Below, one piece after another: positions 1 through 40,585 of a DNA stretch of 41,666 nt. How positions within the stretch are numbered: the first letter of the stretch is position 1; every line of letters starts with the position of its first letter. The translations under genes and the position numbers were made by a program. The notes below the pieces were generated by a model. That model worked only from the letters and a program-made list of their open reading frames with translations. It ran no database searches and had not been told where the DNA came from. Source of the stretch: Escherichia phage vB_EcoM_ECO1230-10; the sequence record NC_027995.1, one strand, 5' to 3'.

Positions 1-27
1 CCCGCCGTTATGGCGGGTTTTTCTTTG
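1..27 (+). terminator. intrinsic terminator-like hairpin at window start
   Basis: stem cccgcc/ggcggg with 5-nt loop followed by tttttcttt; would terminate the plus-strand operon ending with SSB if the ends are contiguous. Confidence 0.45.
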
Positions 28-74
28 GCTTTGTATAATCTAAGCACGTTTAAACGCATTGCGAGGAAATATAT

Positions 75-749
75 ATGGACCGTGAAGGTTGGTTAAATGC
101 TTTGGCGGCGAAGTTTGCGCCGCGCTTTAAAGAATTCGGCTACGAAATGCCTAAATTCCGCGTATCAGTTGGCTTTTGCAGCGGCGGTGCGCGTTCAAGT
201 ACGGCTGCACAGTGCTGGCACAGCAAGTGCAGTTCAGACAACACGTTTGAAATCTTCATCATGCCAGACCAGGTGGAACCGTACCTGGTCGCAAACCACC
301 TGTGGCACGAACTGACTCACGCCACCGTTGGTTTTGACTGTGGACATAAGGGCGCGTTTGCCACGGTGTGCAAGGCTGTTGGCCTGAATGGACCGATGAC
401 CGCCACCACGCCTGGCGAGAAATTCAAAGAGTACGTCAAACCGTTCCTGGACGAACTTGGCCCGATGCCACACGCCAAGCTGACGTTTGACCGTGGCATG
501 TCCATAAAGGTTCCACGCCTGCGCATCGGCCTGGATGAAGGTGGTGACGATGGTGAAGGGGAAGAAATCGAAGTGGCACCGGTCGGCGGCGCGTCCACAG
601 CGAAGCCTAAGCAAACCACCAGGCTGAAAAAGTGCGAATGCCAGGAATGTGGCTACACGGTTCGGGTAACGCAAAAGTGGCTGGAAGTCGGTCCGCCTCA
701 CTGCCCGGAACACGGTGAAATGAAACCGGAAGGGGATGGCGATGATTGA
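75..749 (+). CDS. HExxH (SprT-like) zinc-metallopeptidase-domain protein with C-terminal zinc ribbon
   Basis: ATG at 75 preceded by GAGGAAAT; WHELTHA motif; C-terminal CxxC...HCPEH cluster. Confidence 0.5.
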   Translation: MDREGWLNALAAKFAPRFKEFGYEMPKFRVSVGFCSGGARSSTAAQCWHSKCSSDNTFEIFIMPDQVEPYLVANHLWHELTHATVGFDCGHKGAFATVCKAVGLNGPMTATTPGEKFKEYVKPFLDELGPMPHAKLTFDRGMSIKVPRLRIGLDEGGDDGEGEEIEVAPVGGASTAKPKQTTRLKKCECQECGYTVRVTQKWLEVGPPHCPEHGEMKPEGDGDD

Positions 750-888
750 TTATCTTGGCGCGCTTATTCTGATAGCTGGCATTTACAGCTTTACGCGTGG
801 TTGCTGGTTAGGTGGCGGCTACCTGTTCGCCTGGCTGGTTCCGGCGCTGATCTATATTTGCACCGCCATCAGCATTTTTGAGCGATAA
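742..888 (+). CDS. small hydrophobic membrane protein (48 aa)
   Basis: ATG overlaps the upstream stop (ATGA); translation MIDYLGALILIAGIYSFTRGCWLGGGYLFAWLVPALIYICTAISIFER; not in ORF track (under 60 aa). Confidence 0.3.
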   Translation: MIDYLGALILIAGIYSFTRGCWLGGGYLFAWLVPALIYICTAISIFER

Positions 889-890
889 AT

Positions 891-916
891 AAAAACCCCG
901 CCGAAGCGGGGTTTTG
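891..916 (+). terminator. bidirectional intrinsic terminator
   Basis: aaaaa-ccccgc-cgaa-gcgggg-ttttgtg; perfect 6-bp GC stem flanked by A-run and T-run. Confidence 0.55.
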
Positions 917-1475
917 TGTCACGTGACGCTGTGATGCGAGATACAGATCACCTGCCTTATTGGAATCACTTGTCGGGTAAGTTCCAGTCTGTGCGAATGA
1001 CGCACTGGGATGCGCTTTCACGTTGCGAGGTAACACCCTGGGGTTGTAAGTGTTCGCAAAAGCGCATCACGGTGCGTGTTGTGGTTGCCGGTGTTGCTTG
1101 CCACTTCCGTTATTCCAACTACGGACGCTATTTACACCGGCGAACTATTAAGAACCACAACGGAAAGAACACTGAACCTATGCTTGATGGATTTCTCGCT
1201 GGGTGATCAACTCCAGCGTTCCTGACGGCCTCACCAAACAAGCGGAATCGAACCGCTCAATGCTCTTGCCTGTTGTGTGCCGGTTACATCTCCGGCGCTG
1301 CGCCTATATCAGCCGTCTGCGTAGAGCTAGATTTTTCGTCAGCGTCTGCGTTGCAGTTCTAACTACTCGTTGTCGCTCTGTTAATAACTCTACATCACGC
1401 TATAGCATTCTGCAACCATATTTCCCACTTATTCATCGCCTCTCGCATCTGCGGCAGGTAGTATAAGCGGTAGGT

Positions 1476-1504
1476 TGCAGGTTCGATTCCTGGAGTGGTC
1501 GCCA
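1476..1504 (+). other. tRNA 3'-end-like fragment (T-loop consensus, acceptor 3' strand, CCA) without a complete cloverleaf
   Basis: GGTTCGATTCC at 1480-1490 then tggagtggtcgCCA; no complementary 5' acceptor strand or anticodon arm found upstream. Confidence 0.25.
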
Positions 1505-1510
1505 CAAACA

Positions 1511-1542
1511 AAAAGCCCGCCGAAGTGGCGGGCTGTTGTTTT
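1511..1542 (-). terminator. bidirectional intrinsic terminator
   Basis: aaaa-gcccgcc-gaagt-ggcgggc-tgttgtttt immediately after stop of the 1541-1810 gene. Confidence 0.55.
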
Positions 1543-1810
1543 AGGAGTCCTGGTTAAAACTCGTCATTCTGTCAATCAGCGGCCCTATCTTCGATTCTGC
1601 TAACTGCTGGTCAAAGACATCAAAAGCCTGTTCAGCGGCCTCCACGGATGGAAAACCCATCCCCATTTCCGCTTCCGCCATATCACCAACATAAAAATAA
1701 ATGCGCACCTGCATTTCAACCCCTGGTGAACTATCGCTGTCAGGCTCGCGCAACATTACAACTATCTGGCCGTATTTCTCACTTTCAAACAGCTTTGCAA
1801 ACTTTTTCAC
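1541..1810 (-). CDS. hypothetical protein (89 aa)
   Basis: ORF track; GTG start preceded by AGGGGGAAG; last gene of minus-strand operon before terminator. Confidence 0.55.
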   Translation of the reverse strand: MKKFAKLFESEKYGQIVVMLREPDSDSSPGVEMQVRIYFYVGDMAEAEMGMGFPSVEAAEQAFDVFDQQLAESKIGPLIDRMTSFNQDS

Positions 1811-1819
1811 ACTTCCCCC

Positions 1820-2131
1820 TTACGCCGTCAGTTCGGCGGGTTTGTCTTTGGTCAGTTGGTCAGGTTCCTGGTGGTCGTCACCGTCGATTGGCATCAGACA
1901 TCTTGGCGCAAAAAGCGACCAGCCTTGATCATGTTCACATCCTTTTGGATAAACATTCCCGGTCACCAACCATGAGGCATCGGCTTTCAGAGATAAGAAA
2001 GTCTCTCCGCCTGTAGGAATGTTAAACATCTGGCCAGGGGTGACAAAACGAACCAGCGTTACACACTTCCCGGCGTGTGGGTTGTCACCAATAACCAGCG
2101 CCAGGCAACCGGCTTTCAGTTCGCCTTTCAT
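1820..2131 (-). CDS. hypothetical protein (103 aa)
   Basis: ORF track; ATG overlaps upstream stop (ATGA coupling with ParB-like gene). Confidence 0.55.
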   Translation of the reverse strand: MKGELKAGCLALVIGDNPHAGKCVTLVRFVTPGQMFNIPTGGETFLSLKADASWLVTGNVYPKGCEHDQGWSLFAPRCLMPIDGDDHQEPDQLTKDKPAELTA

Positions 2132-3003
2132 TCCGGCACCCCGCCCACGTAATCAGCCACCAGGGCCATGAATTCACGCACCACGCCAGCAGGTGCGCGC
2201 AGGGTCATGGATTCGTCATCCTCGGCATCTTCCAGACGTTCATCGCTGTGGACCAGTTCGATATGCACAGCCAGGTCAGCCAGGCGCGTCAGCTTGTCTT
2301 TGCCAAACGGTGGCTGGATGGCTTCCGGCTTGGCCTTCTGCGCTTTCGGTGCCTTCGGCTCGGTGAATTTCTTCGTTACTTTATCCTTGCCAGCGGCTTT
2401 GGCTTCTTCCAGCGCCTGTGCGGCCACGGCTTCTGCTTCGGTTCCGTGCTGGCGTGTCAGTTCGGTGGCGGTCACGTAGGACATCTGGCCGCCGCGCACC
2501 ATGTCTTTGATGGGGTCCGGGCACTCAGCCAGGGCCAGCATGTTGGCCACGTCTGACGGGCTGCGCTTCACCTTCCTGGCTATCTCGTCATTGGTCCAGC
2601 CCTGCGCTTTCAGGCGCGCATAGGCTTTGGCGCGTTCCAGCGGTTCCAGTGGCTTGCCCTGGCTGCTGGTGACCATCAGCGCGATTTTGTCAGCCTCACT
2701 GGTGCCGGTGATGTCGTTCACTTCCAGACGCAGTTCCATGCCGGTTTCTGCGGCCATCTTGGCACCGGCAAAGCGGTGGTGGCCGTCAATCACCTTGATG
2801 CCATGCTGCGTCACTTCCACGGTCAGCGGAGGCACATATTCACCTGCCAGGTACGCATCGCGGAATTCTTCAACGTGCGCCTGGTCCACGTCGCGGATGT
2901 TGTAGCCATCTTCCACATACAGTTCAGCCAGCGGTACCCAAAACACCTTGCGCGGCTTTGCTTCTGTTTGTTTTGATTTATAAAGTTGTCCGATAGTAGC
3001 CAT
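2128..3003 (-). CDS. ParB-like nuclease domain protein
   Basis: IDGHHRFAGAKMA ParB/Srx-type motif in N-terminal half, followed by HTH-like segment and Lys/Ala-rich linker. Confidence 0.7.
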   Translation of the reverse strand: MATIGQLYKSKQTEAKPRKVFWVPLAELYVEDGYNIRDVDQAHVEEFRDAYLAGEYVPPLTVEVTQHGIKVIDGHHRFAGAKMAAETGMELRLEVNDITGTSEADKIALMVTSSQGKPLEPLERAKAYARLKAQGWTNDEIARKVKRSPSDVANMLALAECPDPIKDMVRGGQMSYVTATELTRQHGTEAEAVAAQALEEAKAAGKDKVTKKFTEPKAPKAQKAKPEAIQPPFGKDKLTRLADLAVHIELVHSDERLEDAEDDESMTLRAPAGVVREFMALVADYVGGVPE

Positions 3004-3083
3004 TTACATAAACCCCAACACAAATGAAGTGATTAAAAATGAAGCCCATACAATAATGATGGGCAGATCACGTTTTTTAACAA

Positions 3084-3791
3084 TCATTGTTTACGATAAC
3101 CTTTGCCAGAAAGCCAAATTGCAATTTCTGTGGCAACACCAATGTCAAGGCTGGTTTTTGTAGTGGCCGCAAAGTTAGCCAGTTCGTAAAGTATTTCATC
3201 ACGCGCTTCACATTCATTCATGTCGGACTCTAACTGATCATCGTTCAATATCGCAGTATCGCGAGGCACAACAATTCCAGCGGTTTGGGATTCGTTAGGC
3301 TGTACGATGCGGTAAGCAATGATGTCACCGTTACTGCCAGTATGTGACCATGAAAAATCTCCTGCTCTGTCATTATTGAAATGAAGCGGACTAGGTTTCA
3401 GGTATTTGACTTCAACAATTGCGTCACTATCCACCGGGCATTCACCGCCAGCCCATTCAATCCAGCCGTCAGCGTCGGCAGCACTGGCGGTTTTGCCTGC
3501 CCCTGCGTCAGACGTGTAGTGTCCAGTTGAAACCTGGTACGGTCGCAGTTCTTTACTGGCTGCCAGCGCGGCTTCGTACTGTTCGCGGGTGATTTTTACG
3601 CCAGCCTCGCCACATTTTCTGTGATCAATAGCCAGTTCATTAAGGAAGATTCCTGTTCTTACATTTCCTCGACCGTAAAACATAAGTTCACGGTCGTAAT
3701 CTTGCCCGATGCGGGTTACTTTTTTTGGCCACCCGCCATTTTCAGGAAGATACGCAACCAGCAAAGCAAGTAAAGTTTTTGATGTGTTCAT
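3084..3791 (-). CDS. hypothetical protein (235 aa), accessory gene downstream of tail gene D
   Basis: ORF track; no recognisable motif; relatively AT-rich compared with tail genes. Confidence 0.6.
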   Translation of the reverse strand: MNTSKTLLALLVAYLPENGGWPKKVTRIGQDYDRELMFYGRGNVRTGIFLNELAIDHRKCGEAGVKITREQYEAALAASKELRPYQVSTGHYTSDAGAGKTASAADADGWIEWAGGECPVDSDAIVEVKYLKPSPLHFNNDRAGDFSWSHTGSNGDIIAYRIVQPNESQTAGIVVPRDTAILNDDQLESDMNECEARDEILYELANFAATTKTSLDIGVATEIAIWLSGKGYRKQ

Positions 3792-3885
3792 GTGGGCATT
3801 ACCTCGTTATTAATCCGGGCAGGTTATCCGCCCGGATAAGGTAATGATATGCGATGATGTAGAGTGATTGCAACAATGTTTGTTG

Positions 3886-5040
3886 TTATTTTTCTTCAAT
3901 GACGTGACCAGGTCCGTCATCGCCTTCGTTAATGTCCTTTTCTTCGATCACGTGTCCTGGACCATCATCGTCAGGCGGGTCGCTTTCTTGCGGCTTCCTG
4001 CGCTCGATGATTTGCACCTTAGGTTCTTCTTCGCTGTTCGGCTTCGTTGCTTCCACGTCGCACGAATAACCATTATCATCCAGCCTGTGATCTGCGCGGG
4101 TAATCAGCCATTCCCCATCAATGCCATCTCGGAACCCAACAAGCACCAGTTTGCATTCAGCGGCAATGGTCGGGTCACCAGGCAGCGTTACGGCAACAGT
4201 CACCTGGTTGCGCTGACGCTTAGACAGTTCGGCTTTGGCTGCGTCCAGTGCCATTGCCTGCGTTGGGTAGTATTTGCCAATGCGTTTTACCGGCTCACCT
4301 TCGCCAACCTTCACTTCGTTGCGCGCGGCCTTCTTCGTCACCTGGTAGTAAGCCACCACCGTGCCTGCGTTTTCGCGCTTCTGGCTGGTTAGCCGGAATG
4401 CGGTGCAATCCTGCGCCGTCAGCGTTATGGTTGGCAGTTCTTCGCCGCTGGCCGTCTTACCTTCTCCGCGCTTCGTGACCGTGATTTTGCCGCCTGATGG
4501 CTTCACTACGCCGTCATATTTCTTGGCCAGTCGCAGTAACAGGTTCAGGTCAGATTCATCGGCCTGGTCGGTGTGGGGCAGGGTGATTTTGGCCATGCTA
4601 TCTGACACGGCTGATTCCATGCCGTGTTCTTCGGCAATCTTCTTCACCATGTCGCCAAACTTCGTGCCTTTGGTCCAGCTACGTGATTTTTGCGTTTGCA
4701 GGTCGGTTTTGCCTCCCTTTGACTTGTCATAGGTGGCGGCGCGCGCCCTGATTGTCATGGCGCCTGGCCAGCCAGCCAGTTCCACTTCGTCACAGATGAA
4801 CAAGCCCATGCGCTGTGTCCAGTTATCATAACCCAGGAACAGTTCCAGTTCTGCGCCTGTTTCCGGCATCTGGATTGGGTTGGCCGGTTCATCATCGGCA
4901 AGGCTTATTTCCAGCGTGTCAGATTCCAGCCCCACACCATCGGACAGGCTAAGACTTATCAGGCGTTCATTGATTTTTGCGGTGATGTCATCGCCGTTGG
5001 CCAGCACGCGAAACGCTGGCGCAATTCCAGTCAATCCCAT
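3886..5040 (-). CDS. tail protein D (P2 gpD / late control D family)
   Basis: size and sequence style of P2 gpD; terminal position in tail operon after U and X; C-terminal DDGPGHVIEEK x2. Confidence 0.85.
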   Translation of the reverse strand: MGLTGIAPAFRVLANGDDITAKINERLISLSLSDGVGLESDTLEISLADDEPANPIQMPETGAELELFLGYDNWTQRMGLFICDEVELAGWPGAMTIRARAATYDKSKGGKTDLQTQKSRSWTKGTKFGDMVKKIAEEHGMESAVSDSMAKITLPHTDQADESDLNLLLRLAKKYDGVVKPSGGKITVTKRGEGKTASGEELPTITLTAQDCTAFRLTSQKRENAGTVVAYYQVTKKAARNEVKVGEGEPVKRIGKYYPTQAMALDAAKAELSKRQRNQVTVAVTLPGDPTIAAECKLVLVGFRDGIDGEWLITRADHRLDDNGYSCDVEATKPNSEEEPKVQIIERRKPQESDPPDDDGPGHVIEEKDINEGDDGPGHVIEEK

Positions 5041-5240
5041 AATTTGATGCCCTGCGTGGTTGCTGGTGTCGTGATTTCCGGCAGGTTGATGACCAGGCCA
5101 GCAGGCAGCACAGGTCCACGGTCTGCCAGCCCTTTGTTGGCGTTCAGCAGTGCTTCCACGGTGCCAGCGTCCTGGTTTCCGTAGTATTTCCAGGCGATGT
5201 AATCAGCCGTGTCACCATCTTTGGTAATGTAAGTTTGCAT
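5031..5240 (-). CDS. tail protein X (P2 gpX-like, LysM-like)
   Basis: 69 aa; GDT..D.I...YYG......ALL.AN.GLA..G.VLP.G pattern as in P2 gpX. Confidence 0.8.
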   Translation of the reverse strand: MQTYITKDGDTADYIAWKYYGNQDAGTVEALLNANKGLADRGPVLPAGLVINLPEITTPATTQGIKLWD

Positions 5241-5650
5241 CAGTTGAACCGCCGAAGTTGCAAATTGAATTCCTGTTTGCGTGGCGCACCGAACGCCGCG
5301 AACAATGATTGTTTTTCGTCAATGGCTTCAATCAGCCACTTGCCCCACAGCTTACCCAGGCCGTCCACCAGCAACAGCGGCTGACCACGTCCAGCCATGC
5401 TGCGCATTTGCTCTACCTGCTGAAAACCGCCACGGTATTCAGGGTAAATGATGCCAGCCAGGGTGATGGTTTCCTCTCCAATACCCACGAATTGCGATGA
5501 TGGTCGCTGGCCAAAACGGTGCTGCGATGGCCACTTATATTCGCTGTGGCGGTTCAGTTCCTGATATGCAGCAGTGAGGATGCAGAACTGGAAGCCGCCC
5601 AACATCATCATGATGTTGGTCTGCCCGGTTAAAATCGTGAAACTGGTCAT
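5240..5650 (-). CDS. tail protein U (P2 gpU-like)
   Basis: YQEL...S...P....G.RP..QF.G.GEETITL.G..YPE..GG and WLIEAIDEKQ motifs typical of gpU. Confidence 0.8.
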   Translation of the reverse strand: MTSFTILTGQTNIMMMLGGFQFCILTAAYQELNRHSEYKWPSQHRFGQRPSSQFVGIGEETITLAGIIYPEYRGGFQQVEQMRSMAGRGQPLLLVDGLGKLWGKWLIEAIDEKQSLFAAFGAPRKQEFNLQLRRFN

Positions 5651-8408: not shown

Positions 8409-8468
8409 TTCTTATCGCCTTAAACAATGATTGTTGAAAATGGCCAGCCAAATGACTGGCCGTAAAAA

Positions 8469-10399: not shown

Positions 10400-10470
10400 T
10401 ATTCGGTTTCCTATTAACTGTGCACACAGTGAAAATTCGCAGTGTGATGGTCGCAGGAACCGTGCGTGGC

Positions 10471-10488
10471 TTCTTCTTGGGGTTTGTC
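10471..10488 (-). promoter_or_regulatory. late-junction motif copy 1 (GACAAACCCCAAGAAGAA), upstream of sheath
   Basis: exact 18-mer; 72 nt from sheath ATG; just downstream of Tfa terminator. Confidence 0.45.
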
Positions 10489-10490
10489 CG

Positions 10491-12423: not shown

Positions 12424-14901
12424 TTAATAATAAACAGGTATTTCACCGGCAGAATAGTTACCTGCTGCACCTTCGCGGCTACACAGTGCGAACCTCTTGT
12501 CAACAATATCTCTTGAATCTGTAGAAACTATATCATAACAAATATTGTTCGCAGAACGATGAACAAAAGCATTGACGATCGGTTTTGTTGGTGATGAACC
12601 TTTTGCGCGTGTTCCGTCGATAAGGCAATAAGTGAACGAAATAAAACCAGCAACAGGATTATTCCCTGTGTCCCAATCTATGAAAGACTGGTCAAAATAA
12701 ACGCCGCCCTGCATGTAGGTTGTTCCGCCAGAGTACCCTACAAAACGTCGCATGATTCCTTTCTCTACGCGGATGTAACTCCTGTTCATGCCTGATGTAA
12801 TGTTCATGAAAGTCATGTCCATGTTACTTTCAAGGCCATACAGACAGGTTGCATACTCCGCCTGATACCCGACATAAGCAGTAACTTTGCAACCAGTTGA
12901 TTTTGCTGGCGTCAGTTTCACTAATGTCATAGGCCTGGTGGTGGCGTCATGATAGGACAGCGCCCATTCAAACCGTGCAGTTTTGCCGTTGAATGTGCTT
13001 CCGGTGAAGTCAATGACATCCGGCATAACAAAATCACGCAGTGGTGAATTCTGTGTTTTGAAATTATTTTTAAACGAAACAATATTAAGCGTAACGGAAT
13101 CTGGCCAGTAAATATTCGTTGCAATAATAACGTTCTTCGGCAGGTTCAATGCTCGTGGCTGTAGTGGGTTACCAGAAGAAATTACGTTGTCACAACGGCA
13201 GGTGAACAGGTCAACAATTCCAGTTTTATCAGGCGCGACGCGAACAGAACCACCGCGAACAATAAAATCGCCCTTATGTTCGCCATAATCCGAACGAATA
13301 CCAAAAGGCCCGGTATGTGAGTTTATAATTTGTGTTGCTTCATCAAACGCACCAGTACCAAATGATAAGCCGTTTGGGATTCGGCAGTTATCAATCAGTA
13401 TCTTTGAAGAACCATAATGAAGGTTGAAACTGTCCATTGTGCAGTCTCTGACCACAGTGTCACGGCAATAGTTGCCATCCACTGACCGCCAGCCTTTTCC
13501 AACTATGGAACTATTGAAGGTATGTTTGAGCGTGTATTCCATCAGTACCGAATAGCGAGAATTTGTGTCTGATTGCGTGATACCAGAAGAAGAAATGGTC
13601 CAGACAACGCCATATGTAGAACTGCTGCCAAGAATATTTGAATCCATTGCGGTCATGCCCATTTCGTTGGCGTATACAACTTCTACGTCAACCAATGAAC
13701 GTTGGATGTCGAAAGTAAACCGGTTAAATTGGCCGGTGATGCGCGGAAGGACGATTTTGTTACGCTTGTTTGGCAGTTTGTATAAGGTGCAGGTAACAGC
13801 ATCGTTATACGTATTTTTCAGCGTATAGGCTAACTCTCCGGCTTTCGCCATGAAATTGACTTCGCCTTTATAGCGCGGGGTGCTCACACCGTTTAGCAGT
13901 CGATACAAATCAACCTCTGTTGGGCTGATGATCTTAACTAGTGAATTCTCCCAACCTTCTAAAACGTCAGATGTCGGCAAAACAGACGTTAACTCAACAA
14001 GTGGGTAGTTTGTCAGGGTTATGGTTTTTTTATACTCTGAAATGTCCCGCTCATCTGCATAGATCACCTTTCCGCCAGAAAGATTGAATGTCAGGTTGCT
14101 GAAATCAAAGTTTCCGTATGCGGTAACATCTGTGTCAATGTTAAAAGTAAGTGCGACGCTTGAATACAGCGTTACGTTTCTCCCGCGATACGCGGAAAAA
14201 ATAGAGTTAAGCATCGCTGAATCTTTCGTGCCGCTTACTTTAGATATATCAACCAGTGACAGGCGTTCTTCCAGGCCTCCAACGATAGAAACACCGCTAT
14301 TTGAACCTAACTGGCTGCGCAGTGTTTGCGATTTCAAGTCGTTCCATGCACCTGTTGAAATTCCGCCAGTACCTTCCGGTGTCGATTCCTCCGGTACGCT
14401 CTTTGGAAGATTTCCACCCCATGAGTAGCAAGCACCACCAGCAATATGCCAGACAGCATCGTTAACTGACTGCGCTGTAGCACCTTCTTCAAAGCTGCCA
14501 TCCACAAGGTTAAAACCGGCATCAGCCAGCGTTCTGCGCCATTGCTCGCGTGCGTTAGCGTTTATGTTTGCTACATTAATTTCAATGCTTTGCGCTGCTG
14601 ATTCAGCACGTTCCGCAGCGCCATTTGCGTCAGATAGTTGCTGACCGATGTCAACGCACTGGAACGTCACGCGCGTGCCGGTATCTGTCCCAACACTAAC
14701 CTGCATGTCGTAAATGCCATCTGGTGCGCGGAACTGGATTTTTCCATCTGCGTCAGCCGTGAACGGGTTAGCTAGCGCATTGCCGCCCACCGTTTTAAGG
14801 CCGCTTGCCATCGTGGTTGTTTCTGTCAGGTAAATTGTGACAGTAGCGCCTGGAATAAGCGAACCGTTTCGATCCTGCGCGAAGTATGTTTTTAATTCCA
14901 C
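12424..14901 (-). CDS. second tail fibre / tailspike protein with putative beta-helix (depolymerase-like) C-terminal region
   Basis: 825 aa; GTG start coupled to gpI stop; Asn/Ser/Thr/Gly-rich repetitive body; body visibly more AT-rich than flanking tail genes. Confidence 0.6.
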   Translation of the reverse strand: MELKTYFAQDRNGSLIPGATVTIYLTETTTMASGLKTVGGNALANPFTADADGKIQFRAPDGIYDMQVSVGTDTGTRVTFQCVDIGQQLSDANGAAERAESAAQSIEINVANINANAREQWRRTLADAGFNLVDGSFEEGATAQSVNDAVWHIAGGACYSWGGNLPKSVPEESTPEGTGGISTGAWNDLKSQTLRSQLGSNSGVSIVGGLEERLSLVDISKVSGTKDSAMLNSIFSAYRGRNVTLYSSVALTFNIDTDVTAYGNFDFSNLTFNLSGGKVIYADERDISEYKKTITLTNYPLVELTSVLPTSDVLEGWENSLVKIISPTEVDLYRLLNGVSTPRYKGEVNFMAKAGELAYTLKNTYNDAVTCTLYKLPNKRNKIVLPRITGQFNRFTFDIQRSLVDVEVVYANEMGMTAMDSNILGSSSTYGVVWTISSSGITQSDTNSRYSVLMEYTLKHTFNSSIVGKGWRSVDGNYCRDTVVRDCTMDSFNLHYGSSKILIDNCRIPNGLSFGTGAFDEATQIINSHTGPFGIRSDYGEHKGDFIVRGGSVRVAPDKTGIVDLFTCRCDNVISSGNPLQPRALNLPKNVIIATNIYWPDSVTLNIVSFKNNFKTQNSPLRDFVMPDVIDFTGSTFNGKTARFEWALSYHDATTRPMTLVKLTPAKSTGCKVTAYVGYQAEYATCLYGLESNMDMTFMNITSGMNRSYIRVEKGIMRRFVGYSGGTTYMQGGVYFDQSFIDWDTGNNPVAGFISFTYCLIDGTRAKGSSPTKPIVNAFVHRSANNICYDIVSTDSRDIVDKRFALCSREGAAGNYSAGEIPVYY

Positions 14902-16729: not shown

Positions 16730-16762
16730 GCGGGCAATGATGCCCGCATGGCCAGTGTTTTA

Positions 16763-16779
16763 TCTTCTTGGGGTTTGTC
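16763..16779 (-). promoter_or_regulatory. late-junction motif copy 2 (17 of 18), between V and W
   Basis: starts 4 nt after V stop; 34 nt from W ATG; followed by hairpin catgcgggc/gcccgcatg that contains the W start codon. Confidence 0.4.
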
Positions 16780-16782
16780 AGG

Positions 16783-18556: not shown

Positions 18557-18875
18557 CTTGGCGCGTCATCCTCACCACGGCGGTGCCTGTTCCATCCTGT
18601 TCAGGGGATGCCAGCACGTCGAACGTTTCACCGGCCACAATGATTGTGTCACCACGCAGAATGCCAGCCAGGTCAGATTCCTTTGCCGTGATGCGCGGGC
18701 TGCTGGTGTCCGCTTCATACTCGCCAATTTGCGCGTTGAAGTACGGGTCATCAAAAATGGCGTTAATTGTTCTGGTCCAACCTTTTTGCGAATGAATAAC
18801 GGCGGGAAATGCAAACCCGCCGTTGGTGTCAAGGTCAAAAAAGTCGTCCAGGTTTTCCCATGACGGCGCGGGCAT
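18543..18875 (-). CDS. putative head completion / head-tail connector protein
   Basis: 110 aa; position downstream of capsid genes; overlapping starts and stops with neighbours. Confidence 0.35.
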   Translation of the reverse strand: MPAPSWENLDDFFDLDTNGGFAFPAVIHSQKGWTRTINAIFDDPYFNAQIGEYEADTSSPRITAKESDLAGILRGDTIIVAGETFDVLASPEQDGTGTAVVRMTRQDAAF

Positions 18876-19584: not shown

Positions 19585-21633
19585 TTATTCTACTTTGCGG
19601 CCAAGCGCGAAGGATTCAACGCGGCGCACAGCAAAATCCACGTCCTGGAATACCACGATGCGCAGGCCACCGGATTTGCTCAGGCTGTACGGGTCAACCG
19701 TCATGTCCAGGCCGCCCCACATACCAACAACCAGGTCAGCGAAGTTGCCAAAGAACACGTCACCATCCTGCACCTGGTTGGTTACTTCGGCGCGGTAGCC
19801 GTTCAGGGTGTTGCCCGGTTCCCAAATCACACCAGCATCAGCAACGGAAGAACCGCTGGCAAACTTAGGCGTGGTTTTCGCTGCGCCACGGCCACGCGCG
19901 TTCAGCACATACGCCATGTTGTTAACGTCAGCGTTGTCAGCCGCAATTTCGGTTTCCATCTGCACCAGTTCCGCATAAGTCGGATTGTCTGCTGCGAAGT
20001 CTACCGCGTTAATGCCGGTGTAGTTCGCCAGGCCCAGCGGCTGGTTGCTGGTGCCGGTGCCGTAGTAACCAGCGTAATCAATCGCCTGCGCGATAGCTGC
20101 CACCAGATCACCACGCACGATGGCTTCCGCATCCGGGGTGGATTGCATCAGCAGGCGGCGGGTAATGTCGGTGTAAGCCGCAACGGTTTTAGGTGACAAG
20201 CCAAGCTGGCCGATGGTCGGCGTGGTTTCGGTTGCGTCATCACCTTCACCAATCCAGTAGGCAGTAGCGCCGCCAGTCTGTTTCGGAATTTCAACGTTGC
20301 CAACCAGGCCGCCCATAGTGCGCGCCAGGCGCATGATGGTGGTACGCGGGCGCAGCAGGTCGATGAACGAACTGGCCATAAAGTCAGTACCCACCAGGTT
20401 GGAACCGGTTTGAGCGCCTGTCGGGGTGTTCGGTGCGCCGCCAGCGTTGAATGCACGCAGAACATCGTCAGGGATCAGAATGCCTTTTGCACTGCGGCCA
20501 TACTGCTGTTGCGCTGCGTGGCTGCATTCGATTTCAAACGCTGCGGCACGTTGTGCGGCTGCATCGTTCGGGTTAGCCAGCGCGCGAACCACGTTGAAAA
20601 TGCTATAGCGGCGGATGTCTTTGTCAGACATACCAATAACGCTTGACGGCATTTCTGACAGCGGTTTGCCGCCTGAACGGGTGTCATCAGCCGGTTGTGC
20701 CGGGTCTTTCGTCTTGTTAAGGTGGTCCAGCAAGGAACGCTGGAAATCTTCGGCGGTGGTGCCTTCGCCAATGGCTTTCAAAGCCAGGTCACGTGCGTTG
20801 TACTTCTCACCCATTTCGGTGATTGAGCGAACGCGCGCCTTTTCGGCTTCACGGCCACGCTGTTCAGCGCTGCGCACATCATCGCCAGCACGTTCCAGCA
20901 TTTCCAGAACCTGCGTGATTTTGCCTTTCTCGTCTACCATCGCGCGCACCAGATTACCGGCAGCGTCGCGCAGAGTTTTTTCTAACATTCGTGAATCCTC
21001 AAATGATTTTTTTGGTGCTGGAACCTCTACGGTGCCCGCAGTATCGGATTTGCTGCCGCGTTGTTCTTCTTGGGGTTTGTCAAACGCACGCCCAATGCCA
21101 ACGCTGGTGTCAGCGGGAACGCTCACAATTGAAATTTCGAACGGTTCCCATTCAGTGATGCGGTAGACATCCTGCCACTCGTCACGCGTTTCCTGTAGCT
21201 TGGCCGCTAACACGCGGTAGCCAACGGAAACATGCTTGCGAATGCCGTCAACGATGTCCTGGAAAATCTCGTCAGCGCGCGCACTTCTGCCAAAGCGCAC
21301 CACAGCCCGCCCCCGGCGGTCAGCGTCAATGCTGACGGATTCAACAACGCCCACCTGGTCAGTCCAATCGTGGTCAACCAGCAGCGCCCCACCGTCACGC
21401 AGACGGTCTAGGCGCACGCTTTCCGGCGAATGGTCCAGAATTTCGATACCGTACCAGCGTTCAACCTCGATTTCAGAGGAAAAAGCCAGTTCTACGGTGC
21501 GTTTTTCGGTGTCAAACTTGCGCACTTCCATAGTGCGCACTAGCCCACCTTTGTTGAAGTCAGGCAGCGTTTTGCTGTCTGATTTGCGGGTAAATTCGGC
21601 CCCAATGATGCTATTCAGCAGGTTTTTCTGCAT
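19585..21633 (-). CDS. prohead protease - scaffold(delta) - HK97-fold major capsid protein fusion ORF
   Basis: N-terminal about 190 aa protease-like (LLVDHDW), coiled-coil linker, C-terminal HK97-like capsid body; single 682-codon frame. Confidence 0.8.
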   Translation of the reverse strand: MQKNLLNSIIGAEFTRKSDSKTLPDFNKGGLVRTMEVRKFDTEKRTVELAFSSEIEVERWYGIEILDHSPESVRLDRLRDGGALLVDHDWTDQVGVVESVSIDADRRGRAVVRFGRSARADEIFQDIVDGIRKHVSVGYRVLAAKLQETRDEWQDVYRITEWEPFEISIVSVPADTSVGIGRAFDKPQEEQRGSKSDTAGTVEVPAPKKSFEDSRMLEKTLRDAAGNLVRAMVDEKGKITQVLEMLERAGDDVRSAEQRGREAEKARVRSITEMGEKYNARDLALKAIGEGTTAEDFQRSLLDHLNKTKDPAQPADDTRSGGKPLSEMPSSVIGMSDKDIRRYSIFNVVRALANPNDAAAQRAAAFEIECSHAAQQQYGRSAKGILIPDDVLRAFNAGGAPNTPTGAQTGSNLVGTDFMASSFIDLLRPRTTIMRLARTMGGLVGNVEIPKQTGGATAYWIGEGDDATETTPTIGQLGLSPKTVAAYTDITRRLLMQSTPDAEAIVRGDLVAAIAQAIDYAGYYGTGTSNQPLGLANYTGINAVDFAADNPTYAELVQMETEIAADNADVNNMAYVLNARGRGAAKTTPKFASGSSVADAGVIWEPGNTLNGYRAEVTNQVQDGDVFFGNFADLVVGMWGGLDMTVDPYSLSKSGGLRIVVFQDVDFAVRRVESFALGRKVE
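21064..21081 (-). promoter_or_regulatory. late-junction motif copy 3, inside protease-capsid ORF linker
   Basis: exact 18-mer encoding DKPQEE; 76 nt upstream of internal GAGGA-N7-ATG at 20988. Confidence 0.45.
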
Positions 21634-23712: not shown

Positions 23713-25761
23713 TCACCAGCGGCTAACCCATCCACCGCCACGGCGTTTTGCTGCCCTGGCGGAACGTTTAATGGTCTTAGTCTCTGTGACTTGCTGTTTT
23801 TCTTCTTCTTGGGGTTTGTCATTTGCCGGTTGCGGTGTTTCTACCGGTTTCATGACTGGTTTGACGCTCGGCAGCCGCTTGCGGCGTTCCGGTGGCGCGT
23901 TGTCGTTTGCTACCCCAAACTTTTCAGCCAGGCGGCGGAATGACGGCTGCATGATTTTCAGCGCGGCCAGCGCATAGTTGCGGCAGTCCAGTGCTTCGTT
24001 GCGCGCCCGGTCGGGTTTCTTCCATTCTCGGATTGGCTGGCCCTTCACGTAACGCATGGTCAGCTTTTCAGCGGTGATTTGCTTGAACCATTCTTCATCG
24101 CGGTCAGCAGGGAAGTGGCAATAACCCGGCCCCGGTGCCGTCTTGTTTAAACGCCTTGCGGTTATCAGCTTGGCTTCATCGGTTCCAACCAGGAACAAAT
24201 CCACTTTGCGGGTATCCTTCCCGGATTGCTTGCGCTGCGGCTTCTCCACGATAGGGCGGCCCCATCCACCAACGCCTTTGATGGCAAACAGGCGGCGGCC
24301 TGTGCGGCCTCTTGCGTAGTCGTATGCGGCCTGCGTGTAACCGCTGGTGCCCCCGGTATCGAGGCAGGCGGCCATGATCGGCATGATGGCCCCGGTTTCG
24401 TGCTGGTAGGTTTCCGCCAGCAGGTCATCCAGCGCATCCCAGGGGTCTGGCGTCAGCGGGTCGCCCCACAGGACGTGGTAACCCAATGACCAGGATTCTT
24501 CACCCACGCCCCAGGCCACAACCTCACATTCCAGGCGGTCAACCTGCATGTCTATGCCTGCGGTGATATACAGACCACCAGCAGGCACCTGCGCGGCGTA
24601 TTCCTCGCGGCGCGCCATCAGTGAATCCGGGTCAACCTTGTCGCCTTCTTCTTCCCATGTGCGCGCCAGGCTGACGTTGGTGAAGGTTTGCAGGTCGTCC
24701 GTTTTCAGCTTGTCCAGGTAGTCACGCACGATGGCCGGTACTTTACGGAATGTGCTGTATAGTTCGTTCAGGTGGTAGCTGGCGTGACCTTCAAACGGCC
24801 TGGATGCCTTCCATCCTGCGCCCTTTTCTTCGGCCTGGCGGATAGCCGCTATCCGTTCGCCGTCATTCCACTGCGCGCCGCATGATGGGCAATACAGGTG
24901 CGCTGTTTCCGGCTTCTGTTCGTCGATGGCCGCCAGCGTTTCCGCGTCAGTTTCGCGCTGGCCATCCCATTTGACGTTTTCCCATTCAAGCGTAACGTGA
25001 TCGTCACAGTGCGGGCAGCAAACATAGAAGTGTCGCTGGTCGCCCATTTCATACGCTTTTTCGATGTACGATTCCCCCTTAAGGGTAGGGGTGCTGATTT
25101 CCAGCAAAAACCGTTGGTCACCGAAGGTGGCAGAACGCTGCCACAGCAGGCCAACCGGGTGACCTTCGCTGGTTCGTTCATATCCGTCTACCTCGTCACA
25201 TACGATCAGCGGCGCTGAACGACCGCGCATGGTCTTTGGCGAACCGGACCATGCGAACATCAGGAACCCGCCAGGGTATGATTTCATTTTCTGGTTGTTC
25301 ACCCCGTCGCGGCCACGCGGTTTGGCAATGGCGTTGTTTACCGGCGCGCATTCTTCCGCCAGCGGGTTGAATTTTGTTTCCAGCCAGGTGCGCAAGTCAT
25401 CCTGGCTTGGCTGCATCATCATCTGGCTGCGCGGTTCAGCGGCTACGCTGTACGCCTGCACGCACAGTGCCAGCATGGTTTTGCCCACCTGTGCGCCCCA
25501 CATCAGCGTTACGCGGTAGCAATCCGGGTCAACCAGCATGTCCATTGGTTCGCGCTGGTATGGCGCGTTATCCAGGCGCAGCGGCCCTGGCACGGCGTTG
25601 CCAGACGGAATGCGGATGTTTGCCTGCGCCCACTCTGACGGCTTCATGTCTGGCGGCGGCAACAATTGTTGTTGTGCGCGCCTGATGGCCTGGTCGATGC
25701 CTTCAATGTTGGCAAACGGGTTATTCTTCGCTGTCACCGTCGCCCCCTTCGTCATAGCCAT
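23713..25761 (-). CDS. terminase large subunit (lambda gpA family)
   Basis: 682 aa; N-terminal PSEWAQANIRIP...MWGAQVGKT region aligns with lambda A; nuclease and ATPase motifs present. Confidence 0.9.
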   Translation of the reverse strand: MAMTKGATVTAKNNPFANIEGIDQAIRRAQQQLLPPPDMKPSEWAQANIRIPSGNAVPGPLRLDNAPYQREPMDMLVDPDCYRVTLMWGAQVGKTMLALCVQAYSVAAEPRSQMMMQPSQDDLRTWLETKFNPLAEECAPVNNAIAKPRGRDGVNNQKMKSYPGGFLMFAWSGSPKTMRGRSAPLIVCDEVDGYERTSEGHPVGLLWQRSATFGDQRFLLEISTPTLKGESYIEKAYEMGDQRHFYVCCPHCDDHVTLEWENVKWDGQRETDAETLAAIDEQKPETAHLYCPSCGAQWNDGERIAAIRQAEEKGAGWKASRPFEGHASYHLNELYSTFRKVPAIVRDYLDKLKTDDLQTFTNVSLARTWEEEGDKVDPDSLMARREEYAAQVPAGGLYITAGIDMQVDRLECEVVAWGVGEESWSLGYHVLWGDPLTPDPWDALDDLLAETYQHETGAIMPIMAACLDTGGTSGYTQAAYDYARGRTGRRLFAIKGVGGWGRPIVEKPQRKQSGKDTRKVDLFLVGTDEAKLITARRLNKTAPGPGYCHFPADRDEEWFKQITAEKLTMRYVKGQPIREWKKPDRARNEALDCRNYALAALKIMQPSFRRLAEKFGVANDNAPPERRKRLPSVKPVMKPVETPQPANDKPQEEEKQQVTETKTIKRSARAAKRRGGGWVSRW
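23803..23820 (-). promoter_or_regulatory. late-junction motif copy 4, in terminase C-terminal codons
   Basis: exact 18-mer encoding DKPQEE; 97 nt upstream of the next gene's GTG start. Confidence 0.45.
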
Positions 25762-28430: not shown

Positions 28431-28500
28431 GTAACCCCCAATAATTATAAATAAAAGTCAATATGGGGATTGTAGCACACAGAATATACGAAAGTAACAA

Positions 28501-36735: not shown

Positions 36736-38154
36736 CTATTTACGTTTAAATCTTCTTCCGCCCATCTTCGCTATGGCCCAACCTGATGGGTTCGGCAGCC
36801 CTCGTTTCATCGCCAGGGCGGTCAGTGCGCCAATGTCTTTGCACGCATCTTCTTCGCGCCTCATCTTGGCGCGCAGACTTTCTTTGGCGCGTTCGTCCAT
36901 TTCGCGCAGTTCACCTTCCGCCACTTCAATTTCTTTGGCTTCGGCCTGTAGTTCCTTCTGGCAGTGCGGGCACTTCGGCGGCAGCGGTCTTCGGATGGCG
37001 TTGAAACAGCCTTTGCAGATGACTGGCGGCGGTGGTCCACCAGCGCTGCTGGATTTGCTGCCGCTATCATCGCCAGCCAGTGACCATTCCCGTTCATCAT
37101 CGGGGAAGCCATGACGCAGCGCATTGCCAGCGTGGTCCAGGATGATGGCGGTTTTTCCTTTGGACGGTCGCAACACGCGCCCATCTTTCTGTAACACCAG
37201 CGACAATGATTGTGTGGGCTGCGCGTCAATCAGGCAGTCAATCGTCACGTCAGTCTGCGCGATGGCTGACAGGTCGAAACCTTCACCGAACAGGGACACG
37301 TTGAAAATCACATCCAGGTTATCGTTGGCGTAGTCCTGAATGATGCGCTTGCGTTCCGCCTTATCGGTGCCGCCGTCCAGGTGTGCGGCTCGGATGCCTG
37401 AATCAATGAATGCCTGCGTTAAATGGCGGCTGTGTGCGATGTTTACCGCAAAGCCAACCGTTTTCATGCCTTTGGCGTATTTCAGCCAGTGGCTGATGAT
37501 GTTGCCGGTTAGTTTCGGTTTATCCATCTTCTCGGCGGTTTCGCCTTTTGAGAAATCGCCCATCTGCTTGCGTACACCCTTCATGTCAGGGATGTCCGGG
37601 CAGAACATGCGATAATCAGACAGGTGGCCGTTATCCATCAGCCAGCGCACAGATGGCCCCAACACGATGTCATCAAAGTGGTCATCCAGGCCGGTGCCGT
37701 CCAGGCGCTTTGGCGTGGCTGACAGGCCGATGACATACGCGCCATTCTCAAACAGCCAGGCGTTGACGCGTGCCCAACCAGCCGCGCCACAGTGGTGCGC
37801 TTCGTCCATGATTGCCAGTTTAGGGGCGGGCAGGGTGTGCAGGCGGTTTTTCAGGGTGTCGATGCTGCACACCTGCACCCCGGCGCGCAGGTTCATGGGA
37901 TAGCCTGCGGCAATAAAGCCGTGATCAATGCCGAACTTGCGAAACGTCAGGCTGGTTTGCAGCACCAGTTCTGCGCGGTGGCAAATAAACCACACCTGCT
38001 GCCCTTTTGACGATGCTTCCCCAGCCATGAATGACGCCAGCGCAGTTTTCCCCGCGCCTGTTGGTGCCTGCAATAACACGCGCCGGTTGCGCCGCATACA
38101 AAGGCGCGCCCTATTGATAATGTCGGATTGATAGTCCCTAAGTATTACGCCCAT
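36736..38154 (-). CDS. DEAH-box superfamily-2 helicase with C-terminal zinc ribbon
   Basis: Walker A APTGAGKT; MDEAHH box; CKGC...CPHC; first gene of minus-strand early operon. Confidence 0.85.
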   Translation of the reverse strand: MGVILRDYQSDIINRARLCMRRNRRVLLQAPTGAGKTALASFMAGEASSKGQQVWFICHRAELVLQTSLTFRKFGIDHGFIAAGYPMNLRAGVQVCSIDTLKNRLHTLPAPKLAIMDEAHHCGAAGWARVNAWLFENGAYVIGLSATPKRLDGTGLDDHFDDIVLGPSVRWLMDNGHLSDYRMFCPDIPDMKGVRKQMGDFSKGETAEKMDKPKLTGNIISHWLKYAKGMKTVGFAVNIAHSRHLTQAFIDSGIRAAHLDGGTDKAERKRIIQDYANDNLDVIFNVSLFGEGFDLSAIAQTDVTIDCLIDAQPTQSLSLVLQKDGRVLRPSKGKTAIILDHAGNALRHGFPDDEREWSLAGDDSGSKSSSAGGPPPPVICKGCFNAIRRPLPPKCPHCQKELQAEAKEIEVAEGELREMDERAKESLRAKMRREEDACKDIGALTALAMKRGLPNPSGWAIAKMGGRRFKRK

Positions 38155-38348
38155 AATTATTATTCATCGCTTATCATTCAAAGTATTCGCAATTGTATGT
38201 TACTGCGTTGCTTCTGTGCAACCGCAAGTATTCGTTATTGATGTTCAGCAAAACGTGATCTGCAAAAAAAAAGCATGGCAGATGTACAGCTAAGGTTTGT
38301 TGATTAGGCCTCATGACGCCAATTAAAACCCTGTTATCGACAAAGAAG

Positions 38349-38378: not shown

Positions 38379-38428
38379 TCACCGCAGTTAATCGGAAGTC
38401 ATGTTAAATAATCGTTGCGAGGGGCAAT

Positions 38429-39595: not shown

Positions 39596-40585
39596 ATGGC
39601 AGTAATTAATATTCGTAAGGCAGAACGTGAAGGCGCGCGCCTGGTCATCGGCCTGGCAGGTATCAGCGGCAGTGGCAAAACCCTGTCAGCACTTATGCTG
39701 GCATACGGCCTGGCCAACGGTGACGGCACAAAGGTTGGCTTTCTCGATACTGAAAACCGCCGTGGCTCACTGTATGCCAGTGATGACACTTATGAAAAAA
39801 TCAAGGAATCACTTGGACTGAAAGAACGCCCTGACGCGTTTTGGATTGGCGATTTAGAACCTCCTTTCAGTCCGCAGCGCTACATTGACGCCATCCGCGA
39901 ATTTGAAAAGGCAGGCGTTGAAGTTCTGGTGATCGACTCCATCAGCCACGAATGGGAAGGAACAGGCGGCTGCGAAGAAATCGCCACCCTGGCCAACCCG
40001 TTGAAGCCACAATGGAACCGCGCGAAGGCGGAACACAAACGATTCATGAACGCGTTGCTGCAATCCAACATGCACATCATCTGCTGCATCCGCGCACGTG
40101 AAAAAGTGAAACTGGTGAAGGTCAACGGTAAAACGGAATATGAACCGCAAGGCATCATGCCGGTGACGGAAAAGAACGTGATGTTTGAAATGACCGCCAG
40201 CCTGATGATGTGGGATTCTGGCAGCGCGCAGCAGGTCATGAAGTGCCCGGAAGAATTGCGCGGCATCTTAGGACGTGAAACGGGCTACATTAGCGCGCAG
40301 GACGGTTTGGCGCTGCGTCAGTGGGTTCATGGTGGCAACAAGTTAGATCCGAAGGTGGAAGCCTACCGCAACAAGCTGCGCGGCGTTACAGAACAGGGTG
40401 AGCAGTACACGCAAGAATGTTGGGACAAAACCCCGCCAAATATCCGCAAGGCGTTGGGCGATGACTTCAAACAATCATTGTTGGAAGCGGCCCGCGCATA
40501 TGACGAACAGCGCACCAACGCCAACGGCGATGCGCAGGACGTTGATGATTTAAACAGCCAGGTGATGGGCACCGGCGCACAGTAG
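39596..40585 (+). CDS. Sak4-like RecA-fold ATPase (single-strand annealing/recombination)
   Basis: Walker A GISGSGKT; VLVIDSISHEW (Walker B-like); adjacent to exonuclease and SSB. Confidence 0.65.
   Translation: MAVINIRKAEREGARLVIGLAGISGSGKTLSALMLAYGLANGDGTKVGFLDTENRRGSLYASDDTYEKIKESLGLKERPDAFWIGDLEPPFSPQRYIDAIREFEKAGVEVLVIDSISHEWEGTGGCEEIATLANPLKPQWNRAKAEHKRFMNALLQSNMHIICCIRAREKVKLVKVNGKTEYEPQGIMPVTEKNVMFEMTASLMMWDSGSAQQVMKCPEELRGILGRETGYISAQDGLALRQWVHGGNKLDPKVEAYRNKLRGVTEQGEQYTQECWDKTPPNIRKALGDDFKQSLLEAARAYDEQRTNANGDAQDVDDLNSQVMGTGAQ

Follow-up and report, generated by a model that had tools for sequence, protein, structure and literature searches.

What is the function of the small group of genes that lies beyond the end of the tail operon in Escherichia phage vB_EcoM_ECO1230-10? 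The sequence analyzed (the window; NC_027995.1, 41,666 nucleotides (nt)) is the complete genome of this phage, a member of the genus Jilinvirus. Downstream of the tail gene D there are four open reading frames (ORFs) on the minus strand, encoding proteins of 235, 291, 103 and 89 amino acids (aa), followed by a bidirectional terminator. A preliminary description of the locus had reported this arrangement correctly, and had taken the genes for an accessory island that might have a defense, anti-defense or partition-like function. We find that the cluster is not a foreign island but a genus-wide ParB-like module with three small variable genes. Conserved in Jilinvirus, it forms a small operon of its own, located after the tail operon and before attP. 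We judge the chances to be evenly balanced that the 291-aa protein, an orphan ParB, binds DNA site-specifically in the manner of KorB and has its role in lytic growth, where it would autoregulate its own operon and probably also act at palindromes dispersed through the phage genome.

The ParB-like gene (2128..3003, minus strand) encodes an orphan ParB-family protein with an N-terminal ParB/Srx domain, an HTH_ParB helix-turn-helix (HTH) domain, a linker rich in lysine and proline, and a C-terminal domain. The N-terminal domain carries the motif DGHHR noted previously, a GxxR P-motif that we place at residues 73-77. The protein matches HTH_ParB (PF17762) of Pfam with E = 9e-13 (48.7 bits, compared with a cut-off of 22.6) and phrog_1033 with E = 8e-85; Pfam ParBc gave no match at E <= 0.1. 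Two further models fell below threshold, i.e., TIGR00180 (parB_part; 46.8 bits, cut-off 58.45) and the KorB domain of Pfam (PF08535; E = 0.048, 14 bits, cut-off 22.3). Comparison by phmmer with the sequences of the Protein Data Bank (PDB) revealed homology to Spo0J, ParB, Noc and KorB over residues 38-240 (E 1e-10 to 2e-3), with residues 38-183 aligning with Spo0J 1vz0 and 6sdk and with ParB 7bnk (E 1e-10 to 1e-8). The earlier assignment as a ParB/Srx nuclease is upheld as to the fold, in that the N-terminal domain is homologous to the N-terminal domains of solved Spo0J/ParB structures (E 1e-10), but "nuclease" is only the historical name of the domain.

In the alignment with Spo0J and ParB, the GERR of Box II corresponds to GHHR (G74 and R77), and the ENLQRE of Box III corresponds to TSSQGK. 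Both replacements, GHHR and TSSQG, are conserved across 95 distant members of the subfamily. Since GxxR is retained and ENLQR is replaced, the P-motif of Box II has been kept and Box III has been lost. This is the pattern that has been described for the orphan ParBs of mobile elements (Kaljevic et al., 2025; PMC12704722), in a survey where orphan ParB-fold proteins were found to be common in phages, often without Box III, and to have a nucleotide specificity that is unpredictable from sequence or AlphaFold3. The 291-aa protein resembles that class in lying outside a parAB operon on a mobile element, in having no ParA-binding motif, in scoring below TIGR00180, and in its divergent Box III and retained GxxR. 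It differs in having a canonical-looking HTH and C-terminal domain and not a novel fusion, and the survey defines a class, not a function. The best matches to solved structures are chromosomal ParB/Spo0J and Noc (1vz0 at 1e-10, 6sdk, 7bnk and 7ol9), which have the same order of N-terminal domain, HTH and C-terminal domain. Unlike these, the phage protein is associated with no ParA, has no LG[KR]GL motif, has exchanged GERR for GHHR and ENLQR for TSSQG, and has a different candidate binding site (see below).

Is the cluster cargo, or is it part of the lineage? Six sequenced relatives were compared with the window by tblastn. Five of these Jilinvirus phages, ep3, ECOO78, Alux-21, HeidiAbel (Bas97) and PT1, have ~92% DNA identity to the window, and the sixth, Arya, is more distant. 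The metagenomic relatives L019, L022, L023 and L024 were also compared. All six sequenced relatives, and likewise L022-L024, have the order D, orf235, ParB, orf103, variable ORFs, terminator, tRNA-Arg. L019 keeps the order without orf235; ParB follows directly after D, and only the first four codons of orf235 are left, so that orf235 is evidently dispensable in nature. ParB and orf103 are at this position in L019, L023 and L024 also, and the gene order is unchanged in two IMG/VR relatives whose ParB has only 48-50% identity. A search anchored on gpD for relatives lacking ParB, which would be natural knockouts, returned just three viral contigs, all of them with ParB.

For the ParB-like protein, identity is 56% in Arya and 96-97% in the five other sequenced relatives; for gpD the corresponding values are 78% and 95-98%, the D gene of Arya being ~75% identical at the nucleotide level. 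The ratio of nonsynonymous to synonymous substitution rates (dN/dS) for ParB is 0.11-0.19, indicating purifying selection, and this applies also between two phages that have no integrase. By contrast with the preliminary description, therefore, ParB is a conserved lineage gene and not cargo. The proposed moron-like position is real, in that the cluster is the last transcription unit before attP/tRNA-Arg, with its own sigma70-like promoter and a strong terminator, but ParB is not sporadic, occurring in every relative examined. Presence is sporadic for orf89, for the slot for small ORFs after orf103 and, in part, for orf235. ParB, orf235 and orf103 have homologues at this position in six out of six sequenced Jilinviruses and orf89 does not. 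Conservation of all four genes in relatives had been named in the preliminary description as an outcome that would refute its proposal, and for the core of the cluster this is largely what we observe. Our conclusion is that orf235 and orf103 are exchanged rapidly but always present nearby, and that orf89 and its slot are the true cargo. In Arya (L003, 5388-6355) the ParB-like gene matches in two frames, covering residues 1-235 and 235-287, which suggests a frameshift or a sequencing error that would remove the C-terminal domain.

The sequence next to the cluster bears on the stage of the phage life cycle at which the protein might act. Nucleotides 1383-1541 are a deletion scar, in which the 3′ end of an integrase gene is joined to what remains of a tRNA-Arg gene, its 3′ ~38 nt. 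The integrase remnant (1383..1471, minus strand) comprises the last ~25 codons, matching the 3′ end of HeidiAbel int by blastn and integrase residues 349-403 by tblastn. The tRNA-Arg remnant (1464..1501, plus strand) was identified by blastn against the tRNA-Arg region of HeidiAbel and would be what is left of the attP core; ARAGORN found no intact tRNA there. At the same place HeidiAbel, PT1 and Alux-21 have a full tRNA-Arg (annotated in HeidiAbel and PT1) and an integrase of 403 aa, and the integrase is intact in L019 also. By this comparison the 5′ part of the tRNA-Arg gene has been deleted together with the integrase. As both elements are intact in relatives, ECO1230-10 is an integrase-less deletion derivative of a temperate ancestor. 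Nor could we find in the window, by tblastn, the CI-like repressor that is encoded in HeidiAbel between the exonuclease VIII and helicase genes; where HeidiAbel carries that gene the window has an AT-rich spacer of 274 nt (38155-38428). Because it is maintained under purifying selection in phages that have neither integrase nor repressor, the ParB-like protein would be expected to act during lytic growth.

If the cluster were instead a moron that protects the host, by defense or superinfection exclusion, it should be expressed from the end of a prophage. It does adjoin attP, and would hence sit at such an end, it is equipped with a sigma70-like promoter and a terminator, and binding sites for ParB on an incoming homologous genome could in principle allow interference. 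Yet ParB is under purifying selection in phages without int and cI, which are unable to lysogenize, and lysogeny has not been observed for Jilinvirus, a genus of small myoviruses of uncertain lifestyle (BASEL paper, PMC11990801). Megablast with the island (1400-3900) gave zero matches in 5,426 complete E. coli genomes. Prophages with the ParB module are thus rare or absent among finished E. coli assemblies, despite the temperate-type genes of the genus. The defense function that had been suggested also finds no match below E 0.01 in PADLOC; the best matches of the island in PADLOC-DB v2 had E values of 0.014 and 0.05, and covered short stretches only. We regard a host-protecting role as very improbable.

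On what DNA might the protein act? Alignment of the spacer between D and orf235 revealed a perfect palindrome just past the stop codon of D. The sequence AACAAT(G/C)ATTGTT proves to be the only strongly enriched palindrome of the genome. There are seven exact matches to the pattern AACAANNNTTGTT, where 0.08 are expected, and none of 100 shuffled sequences reached seven. With inclusion of the core ACAAT(G/C)ATTGT there are nine sites, against ~0.13 in simulations; HeidiAbel has nine and Arya eight. Where the sites of Arya are orthologous, only 4 of 104 positions are mismatched, compared with 21% divergence of the flanks (P = 6e-7). The conservation of sites within diverged flanks indicates that the palindromes are under selection at the level of DNA, even where they are intragenic. 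The 5.4 kb adjoining the ParB-like gene hold four of the nine (P = 0.02).

Two of the sites are placed like operators of the cluster. Site 1 (3872..3884; AACAAACATTGTT on the gene strand) lies 1 nt past the D stop codon and covers the first two nucleotides of the −35 hexamer of a predicted sigma70-like promoter upstream of orf235 (3844..3873, minus strand), identified by a consensus scan as TTGCAA-18 nt-TATCAT. In seven phages the −10 hexamer does not vary and the −35 hardly does, and L019 has TTGCGA-18-TATCAT. Site 1 itself is conserved in HeidiAbel, Arya, L019, L022, L023 and L024. Site 2 (3079..3091; AACAATGATTGTT) overlaps the stop codon of orf235, ~75 nt upstream of the start of ParB, and an equivalent is present 53-75 nt upstream of ParB in L019, L023 and L024, regardless of the gene upstream. 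The operator-like placement consequently persists where orf235 has been deleted or replaced.

The remaining sites are scattered. The sequence AACAATGATTGTT recurs at 5301..5313, within a gpU-like gene, where it is identical in HeidiAbel and in Arya, even though the flanks in Arya are 76.5% identical, and at 8423..8435, in the intergenic spacer that separates the tube and tail-chaperone genes. A variant, AACAAATATTGTT, lies at 12537..12549 within the tail-fiber gene, in a region that has no alignable ortholog in HeidiAbel or Arya, and another, AACAATTGTTGTT, at 25661..25673 near the start of the large terminase gene. Matches to the core are found at 18636..18648 (CACAATGATTGTG) and, within the helicase gene, at 37202..37214 (GACAATGATTGTG). 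The last site, AACAATCATTGTT (40470..40482), is within a gene of the early operon. We considered other assignments for the palindromes and rejected them. They are not CI operators, since the window retains them without a CI-like gene and the early promoter region (38155-38428) has none, and they are not promoters, as no common −10 or −35 element was found flanking them.

Homologs of the ParB-like protein in other phages provide a comparison. Those with 50-59% identity are found in Skate-like siphoviruses, in Erwinia phage 59 and in lambdoid prophages, in the last two either between cII and O or downstream of N. Of the more distant ones (30-33% identity), one belongs to the replication region of Xanthomonas phage FoX3 and another follows Ogr in the P2-like Burkholderia phage ST79. 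Judged by these positions, the family appears to be a recurrent early or regulatory gene of many phages and not an appendage of tail operons. The homologs in lambdoid prophages and Skate-like phages are true ones, with DGHHR, TSSQG and a similar length, but they differ from the Jilinvirus protein in their position in early or replication operons, in having the predicted recognition helix RSxADV(D/E)HHL, and in the absence of the AACAATSATTGTT palindrome from their loci. The predicted recognition helix RSPSDVAN(M/F)LAL is present in 40 of 40 ParBs of the Jilinvirus type and in none of 80 homologs from other backbones. The palindrome was not found at the loci of ParB homologs from other phage backbones, there is no enriched palindrome in Erwinia phage 59 or in the Skate-like phage Bas80, and three prophages that encode an identical ParB share no palindrome near the gene, except for one that merely encodes the DGHH motif. 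The lambdoid prophages, Erwinia phage 59 and Bas80 rule out an extension of the palindrome to the whole ParB-like subfamily.

Taken with the conserved placement of the sites, these comparisons suggest how the protein might function. It would bind the 13-bp palindrome AACAAT(G/C)ATTGTT as a dimer, and would autoregulate the operon from two of the copies, one abutting the −35 element of the operon's promoter and one ~75 nt before the ParB start codon. From the other palindromes it could act more widely on the phage DNA, as KorB does on RK2; site-specific loading, possibly nucleotide-dependent, would result in transcriptional control or in organization of the phage DNA. Among the observations in favor, the palindromes persist in ECO1230-10, a phage without the CI-like repressor, and the predicted recognition helix is specific to the ParBs of the Jilinvirus type, with the palindrome absent from the loci of other homologs. 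A more elaborate scheme, in which the protein is a phage-borne genome-wide regulator or organizer that loads at the ~nine palindromes through its Box III-less pocket (possibly with adenosine triphosphate (ATP) in place of cytidine triphosphate (CTP)) and thereby governs transcription or the handling of DNA in lytic growth, and in which the neighboring orf235 and orf103 tune it or act with it against host factors, we think unlikely.

The closest known counterpart is KorB of the IncP plasmid RK2, a CTPase of the ParB family and a global repressor. The KorB operator is a 13-bp sequence with a central G/C, and so is the candidate palindrome. The two proteins have in common membership of the ParB family with an HTH, as reflected in similarity to 8qa8 (E = 3e-4) and 1r71 (E = 2e-3), and neither has a dedicated centromere in use. 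The candidate sites are, like those of KorB, short perfect palindromes present in ~9-12 copies per replicon, in some cases immediately preceding a −35 element and in others distal or intragenic; KorB operators are known in both arrangements (PMC11790492). There are also differences. The match of the phage protein to PF08535 is sub-threshold, the ENLxR required for closure of the KorB clamp is replaced by TSSQG, no KorA-like partner and no IncC/ParA has been identified, the replicon is a phage and not a plasmid, the site has another sequence, and binding is in the present case a prediction.

Several points weigh against this proposal. Association of ParB with the palindromes is a co-occurrence in a single lineage, and is confounded by phylogeny; a cis site near the gene is not a general feature of the family, none having been found in the lambdoid prophages or the Skate-like phage. 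Other DNA-binding proteins common to all these phages could own the palindromes, i.e., a 77-aa repressor-like protein, a Xis/MerR-like protein and the late activator. Six of the nine palindromes are inside coding sequences with no obvious promoter near, and the promoter at site 1 is a consensus match only, from a scan that gave four such sites in the region where 3.4 were expected. The residues of Box III by which canonical ParB hydrolyzes CTP and closes its clamp are absent, so a sliding clamp of the KorB type may not form. Lastly, ParB of Arya is seemingly split near its 3′ end, and the palindromes have been retained nonetheless.

Could the protein be a partition protein of the plasmid type, segregating an extrachromosomal prophage or replicating phage genomes by means of centromere-like sites? 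The records of the relatives already annotate the gene as a "ParB-like partition protein", and orphan phage ParBs are a recognized class. A ParB-family protein with multiple palindromes clustered near its gene would fit such a system. However, no ParA is annotated in the HeidiAbel genome and none is among the Pfam matches in the 20.9-kb stretch of L019 that was retrieved, and neither set contains a Walker ATPase partner. A regular-expression search of the 291-aa protein for the ParA-binding motif LG[KR]GL found none; its score below the TIGR00180 cut-off and its loss of Box III point in the same direction. Moreover, integration in the temperate relatives relies on a tyrosine integrase, and these phages have a tRNA attP. 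Classical partition, one of the functions offered by the preliminary description, is consequently extremely improbable.

An enzymatic role requires separate consideration. The DGHHR domain might be a nuclease or nucleoside triphosphatase, or might steer a DNA-modifying enzyme to phage DNA, as in the ParB-dependent T-dioxygenases of phages. Strict conservation of GHHR and TSSQG in the subfamily shows the pocket to be under constraint, and its C-motif loop EYVPP resembles the loops of ATP binders such as KDVPP, a resemblance that the authors themselves call unreliable (PMC12704722). There is also the precedent of a phage ParB that activates a 5mYOX enzyme, although the 5mYOX-associated ParBs have no DNA-binding domain (PMC13229309) and the 291-aa protein has HTH_ParB. 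In Escherichia phage ChristineMuster_Bas80 (L013, 17608-19214), a Skate-like virulent siphovirus, the ParB-like homolog is followed immediately by a DNA methyltransferase gene. That adjacency is not seen in Jilinviruses, where the ParB gene has no modifying enzyme next to it and its three neighbors do not look enzymatic. HeidiAbel DNA is readily restricted (PMC11990801), and nuclease activity is not general to the ParB fold. We consider an enzymatic or modification-guiding function improbable.

Should the KorB-like role be correct, these phages would offer a simple system in which to study what a ParB without ParA and Box III does in lytic infection. The orphan ParB fold is very widespread among phages and prophages, but hardly any of these proteins has a known DNA target or role, and their functions were left open in the survey (PMC12704722). 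What the Jilinviruses provide is a concrete pairing, of a conserved ParB-like protein and a defined family of palindromes that is operator-like at the protein's own promoter, in a genus of coliphages that grows on derivatives of E. coli K-12. A search of the literature for the palindrome sequence returned nothing relevant, and both the family and its operator-like placement appear to be unreported. If the genome-wide scheme held as well, these would be the first defined cis-sites for the orphan phage ParB class, in a tractable E. coli model, HeidiAbel/Bas97 being part of the BASEL collection. If the pairing is false, there remain only a gene already annotated as a "ParB-like partition protein" and a few small ORFs.

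We turn now to the three neighbors, in which the preliminary description had recognized no motif. Our searches of Pfam, NCBIfam, PADLOC and the PDB sequences agree, giving no significant match, and PHROGs returned only families of unknown function. The first, orf235 (3084..3791, minus strand), encodes a mosaic protein of three modules, namely an N-terminal module (residues 1-81), a middle module with GWIxWxGGECPV...DIIAYR, and a C-terminal helical hairpin ending in GYRKQ. These modules have been shuffled among 1378 homologs. The identity of orf235 between relatives is 41-61% by tblastn, and the hypervariable part is the N-terminal half (nt 3478-3778). Many orf235-type mosaic proteins that are otherwise different end in GYRKQ followed by the stop codon, and the DNA of this ending (3084-3095; AAACAATGA) is half of palindrome site 2; the conserved C-terminus may in part reflect selection on the DNA site.

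The start of orf103 (1820..2131, minus strand) overlaps the stop codon of ParB. Its product is 95% identical in ep3 and 38-54% identical in the other five relatives (tblastn), with an invariant N-terminus, a hypervariable middle and a conserved acidic, disordered C-terminal tail. The predicted fold is a beta-barrel like those of SH3, KOW and PsaE (predicted local distance difference test (pLDDT) score of 85), and the structure model contains no HTH. The barrel is a generic one from which no function follows; its matches in BFVD are all uncharacterized phage proteins, among which "ATPase" labels are annotation artifacts for a barrel of ~100 aa. KorB works with a small co-repressor, KorA or TrbA, that locks the clamp, and the SH3/KOW-like barrel without HTH is unlike these. 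Relatives of orf103 occur without ParB in the nin regions of P22-like phages and in jumbo phages, and we therefore rejected the idea that it is an obligate partner of ParB analogous to KorA. The third gene, orf89 (1541..1810, minus strand), has a GTG start and the ribosome-binding site GGGGGAAG. We found no homolog of it in the six sequenced relatives nor in 50,697 phage records; it matches phrog_9037, of unknown function, and its family comprises only 11 clusters among 1.84 billion representatives. The slot for small ORFs after orf103 is occupied differently in every phage. We conclude that orf235, orf103 and orf89 encode small, modular, rapidly exchanged accessory proteins and not defined partners of ParB.

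These properties raise the possibility that the three are cargo for anti-defense or host takeover, fast-evolving inhibitors of host factors or of defense systems that are exchanged by recombination, with ParB merely a conserved neighbor. The earlier suggestion of anti-defense could apply only to these hypervariable genes, not to ParB. In five of the six relatives D and ParB are 95-98% identical, whereas orf235 and, except in ep3, orf103 have low identity; each of these two has conserved ends and a variable middle. The shuffling of orf235 modules, the restriction of orf89 to ECO1230-10, the moron-like position with its promoter-like site and terminator, and the occurrence of orf103 relatives in nin regions and jumbo phages, typical for small accessory genes, are all in keeping with it. 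So too is the GC content, which varies across the cluster from 0.42 in orf235 to 0.63 in ParB, a swing that fits a mosaic origin. Against this, the proteins have no similarity to known anti-defense or defense proteins, orf235 can be dispensed with in nature, and variability by itself names no target. HeidiAbel, furthermore, carries the module and yet was reported to be very sensitive to restriction-modification systems (PMC11990801), so that at least an effective anti-restriction function is absent. The cargo explanation is the main rival to the KorB-like reading, and we hold it only tentatively, as possible but doubtful. It is compatible with a KorB-like role for ParB, since it concerns different genes.

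The preliminary description had called the four genes translationally coupled. This is correct for ParB and orf103 only, which overlap by the 4 nt ATGA; orf103 and orf89 are 9 nt apart, a spacer of 80 nt containing a terminator-like hairpin lies between orf235 and ParB, and a spacer of 94 nt containing the promoter-like site and a hairpin lies between D and orf235. The hairpin in the 80-nt spacer (3035..3064, minus strand; z −3.1) is GCCCAT...ATGGGC followed by a T-run, and has undergone a compensatory change in Arya, to GCCCAC...GTGGGC. The terminator that closes the cluster (1514..1534) is a strong bidirectional intrinsic one, folding as RNA with −23.9 kcal/mol (z −4.96). The palindromic stem previously noted between D and the first gene of the cluster is real, and lies at 3813-3837. 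Folded as RNA, this palindrome, ATCCGGGC/GCCCGGAT, gives −22.8 kcal/mol (z −4.86), and none of 200 shuffled sequences folds as well. On the minus strand it is a leader hairpin, with stem CCGGGCGG / CUGCCCGG and a 5-nt loop, near the predicted 5′ end of the mRNA; across seven aligned phages, and L019 as well, the stem is invariant and the loop variable. Folding prediction for the orf235 leader (3800-3850, minus strand) pairs the Shine-Dalgarno GAGG with an upstream CCUU just past the −10 element, a segment whose transcription depends on the real start site. No known RNA family reached its gathering score in nucleotides 1-5200, where the only matches were sub-threshold and terminator-like.

Some observations outside the cluster may be recorded. 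The gpD gene (3886..5040, minus strand; 384 aa), the last of the tail operon, matches Pfam Phage_GPD (E = 9.6e-13) and phrog_52. Its C-terminus (3886-3940) contains a tandem duplication of DDGPGHVIEEK, ending in ...DDGPGHVIEEKDINEGDDGPGHVIEEK; the protein has 368 aa in ep3, HeidiAbel, PT1 and Alux-21, and ECOO78 has the longer form. A non-palindromic motif of 17 nt, TGACAAACCCCAAGAAG (gene strand), occurs five times, at 10464-10489, 16755-16780, 21057-21082, 23796-23821 and 28046-28071. Four of these copies precede the sheath, baseplate W, head-tail joining and holin genes, at distances of 30-115 nt from the gene starts, and the fifth is within the major head gene. The annotated late activator (27996-28430) may use them as phage-specific late promoters. 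Upstream of its gene, a spacer of 430 nt contains, at 28500-28760, several palindromes and repeats of the form TGGGAC(T/C)A...GATAGTCCCA, for example at 28506-28539, 28714-28747 and 28673-28759. These are a second, distinct family of sites resembling those bound by proteins, and could serve as operators or as an origin.

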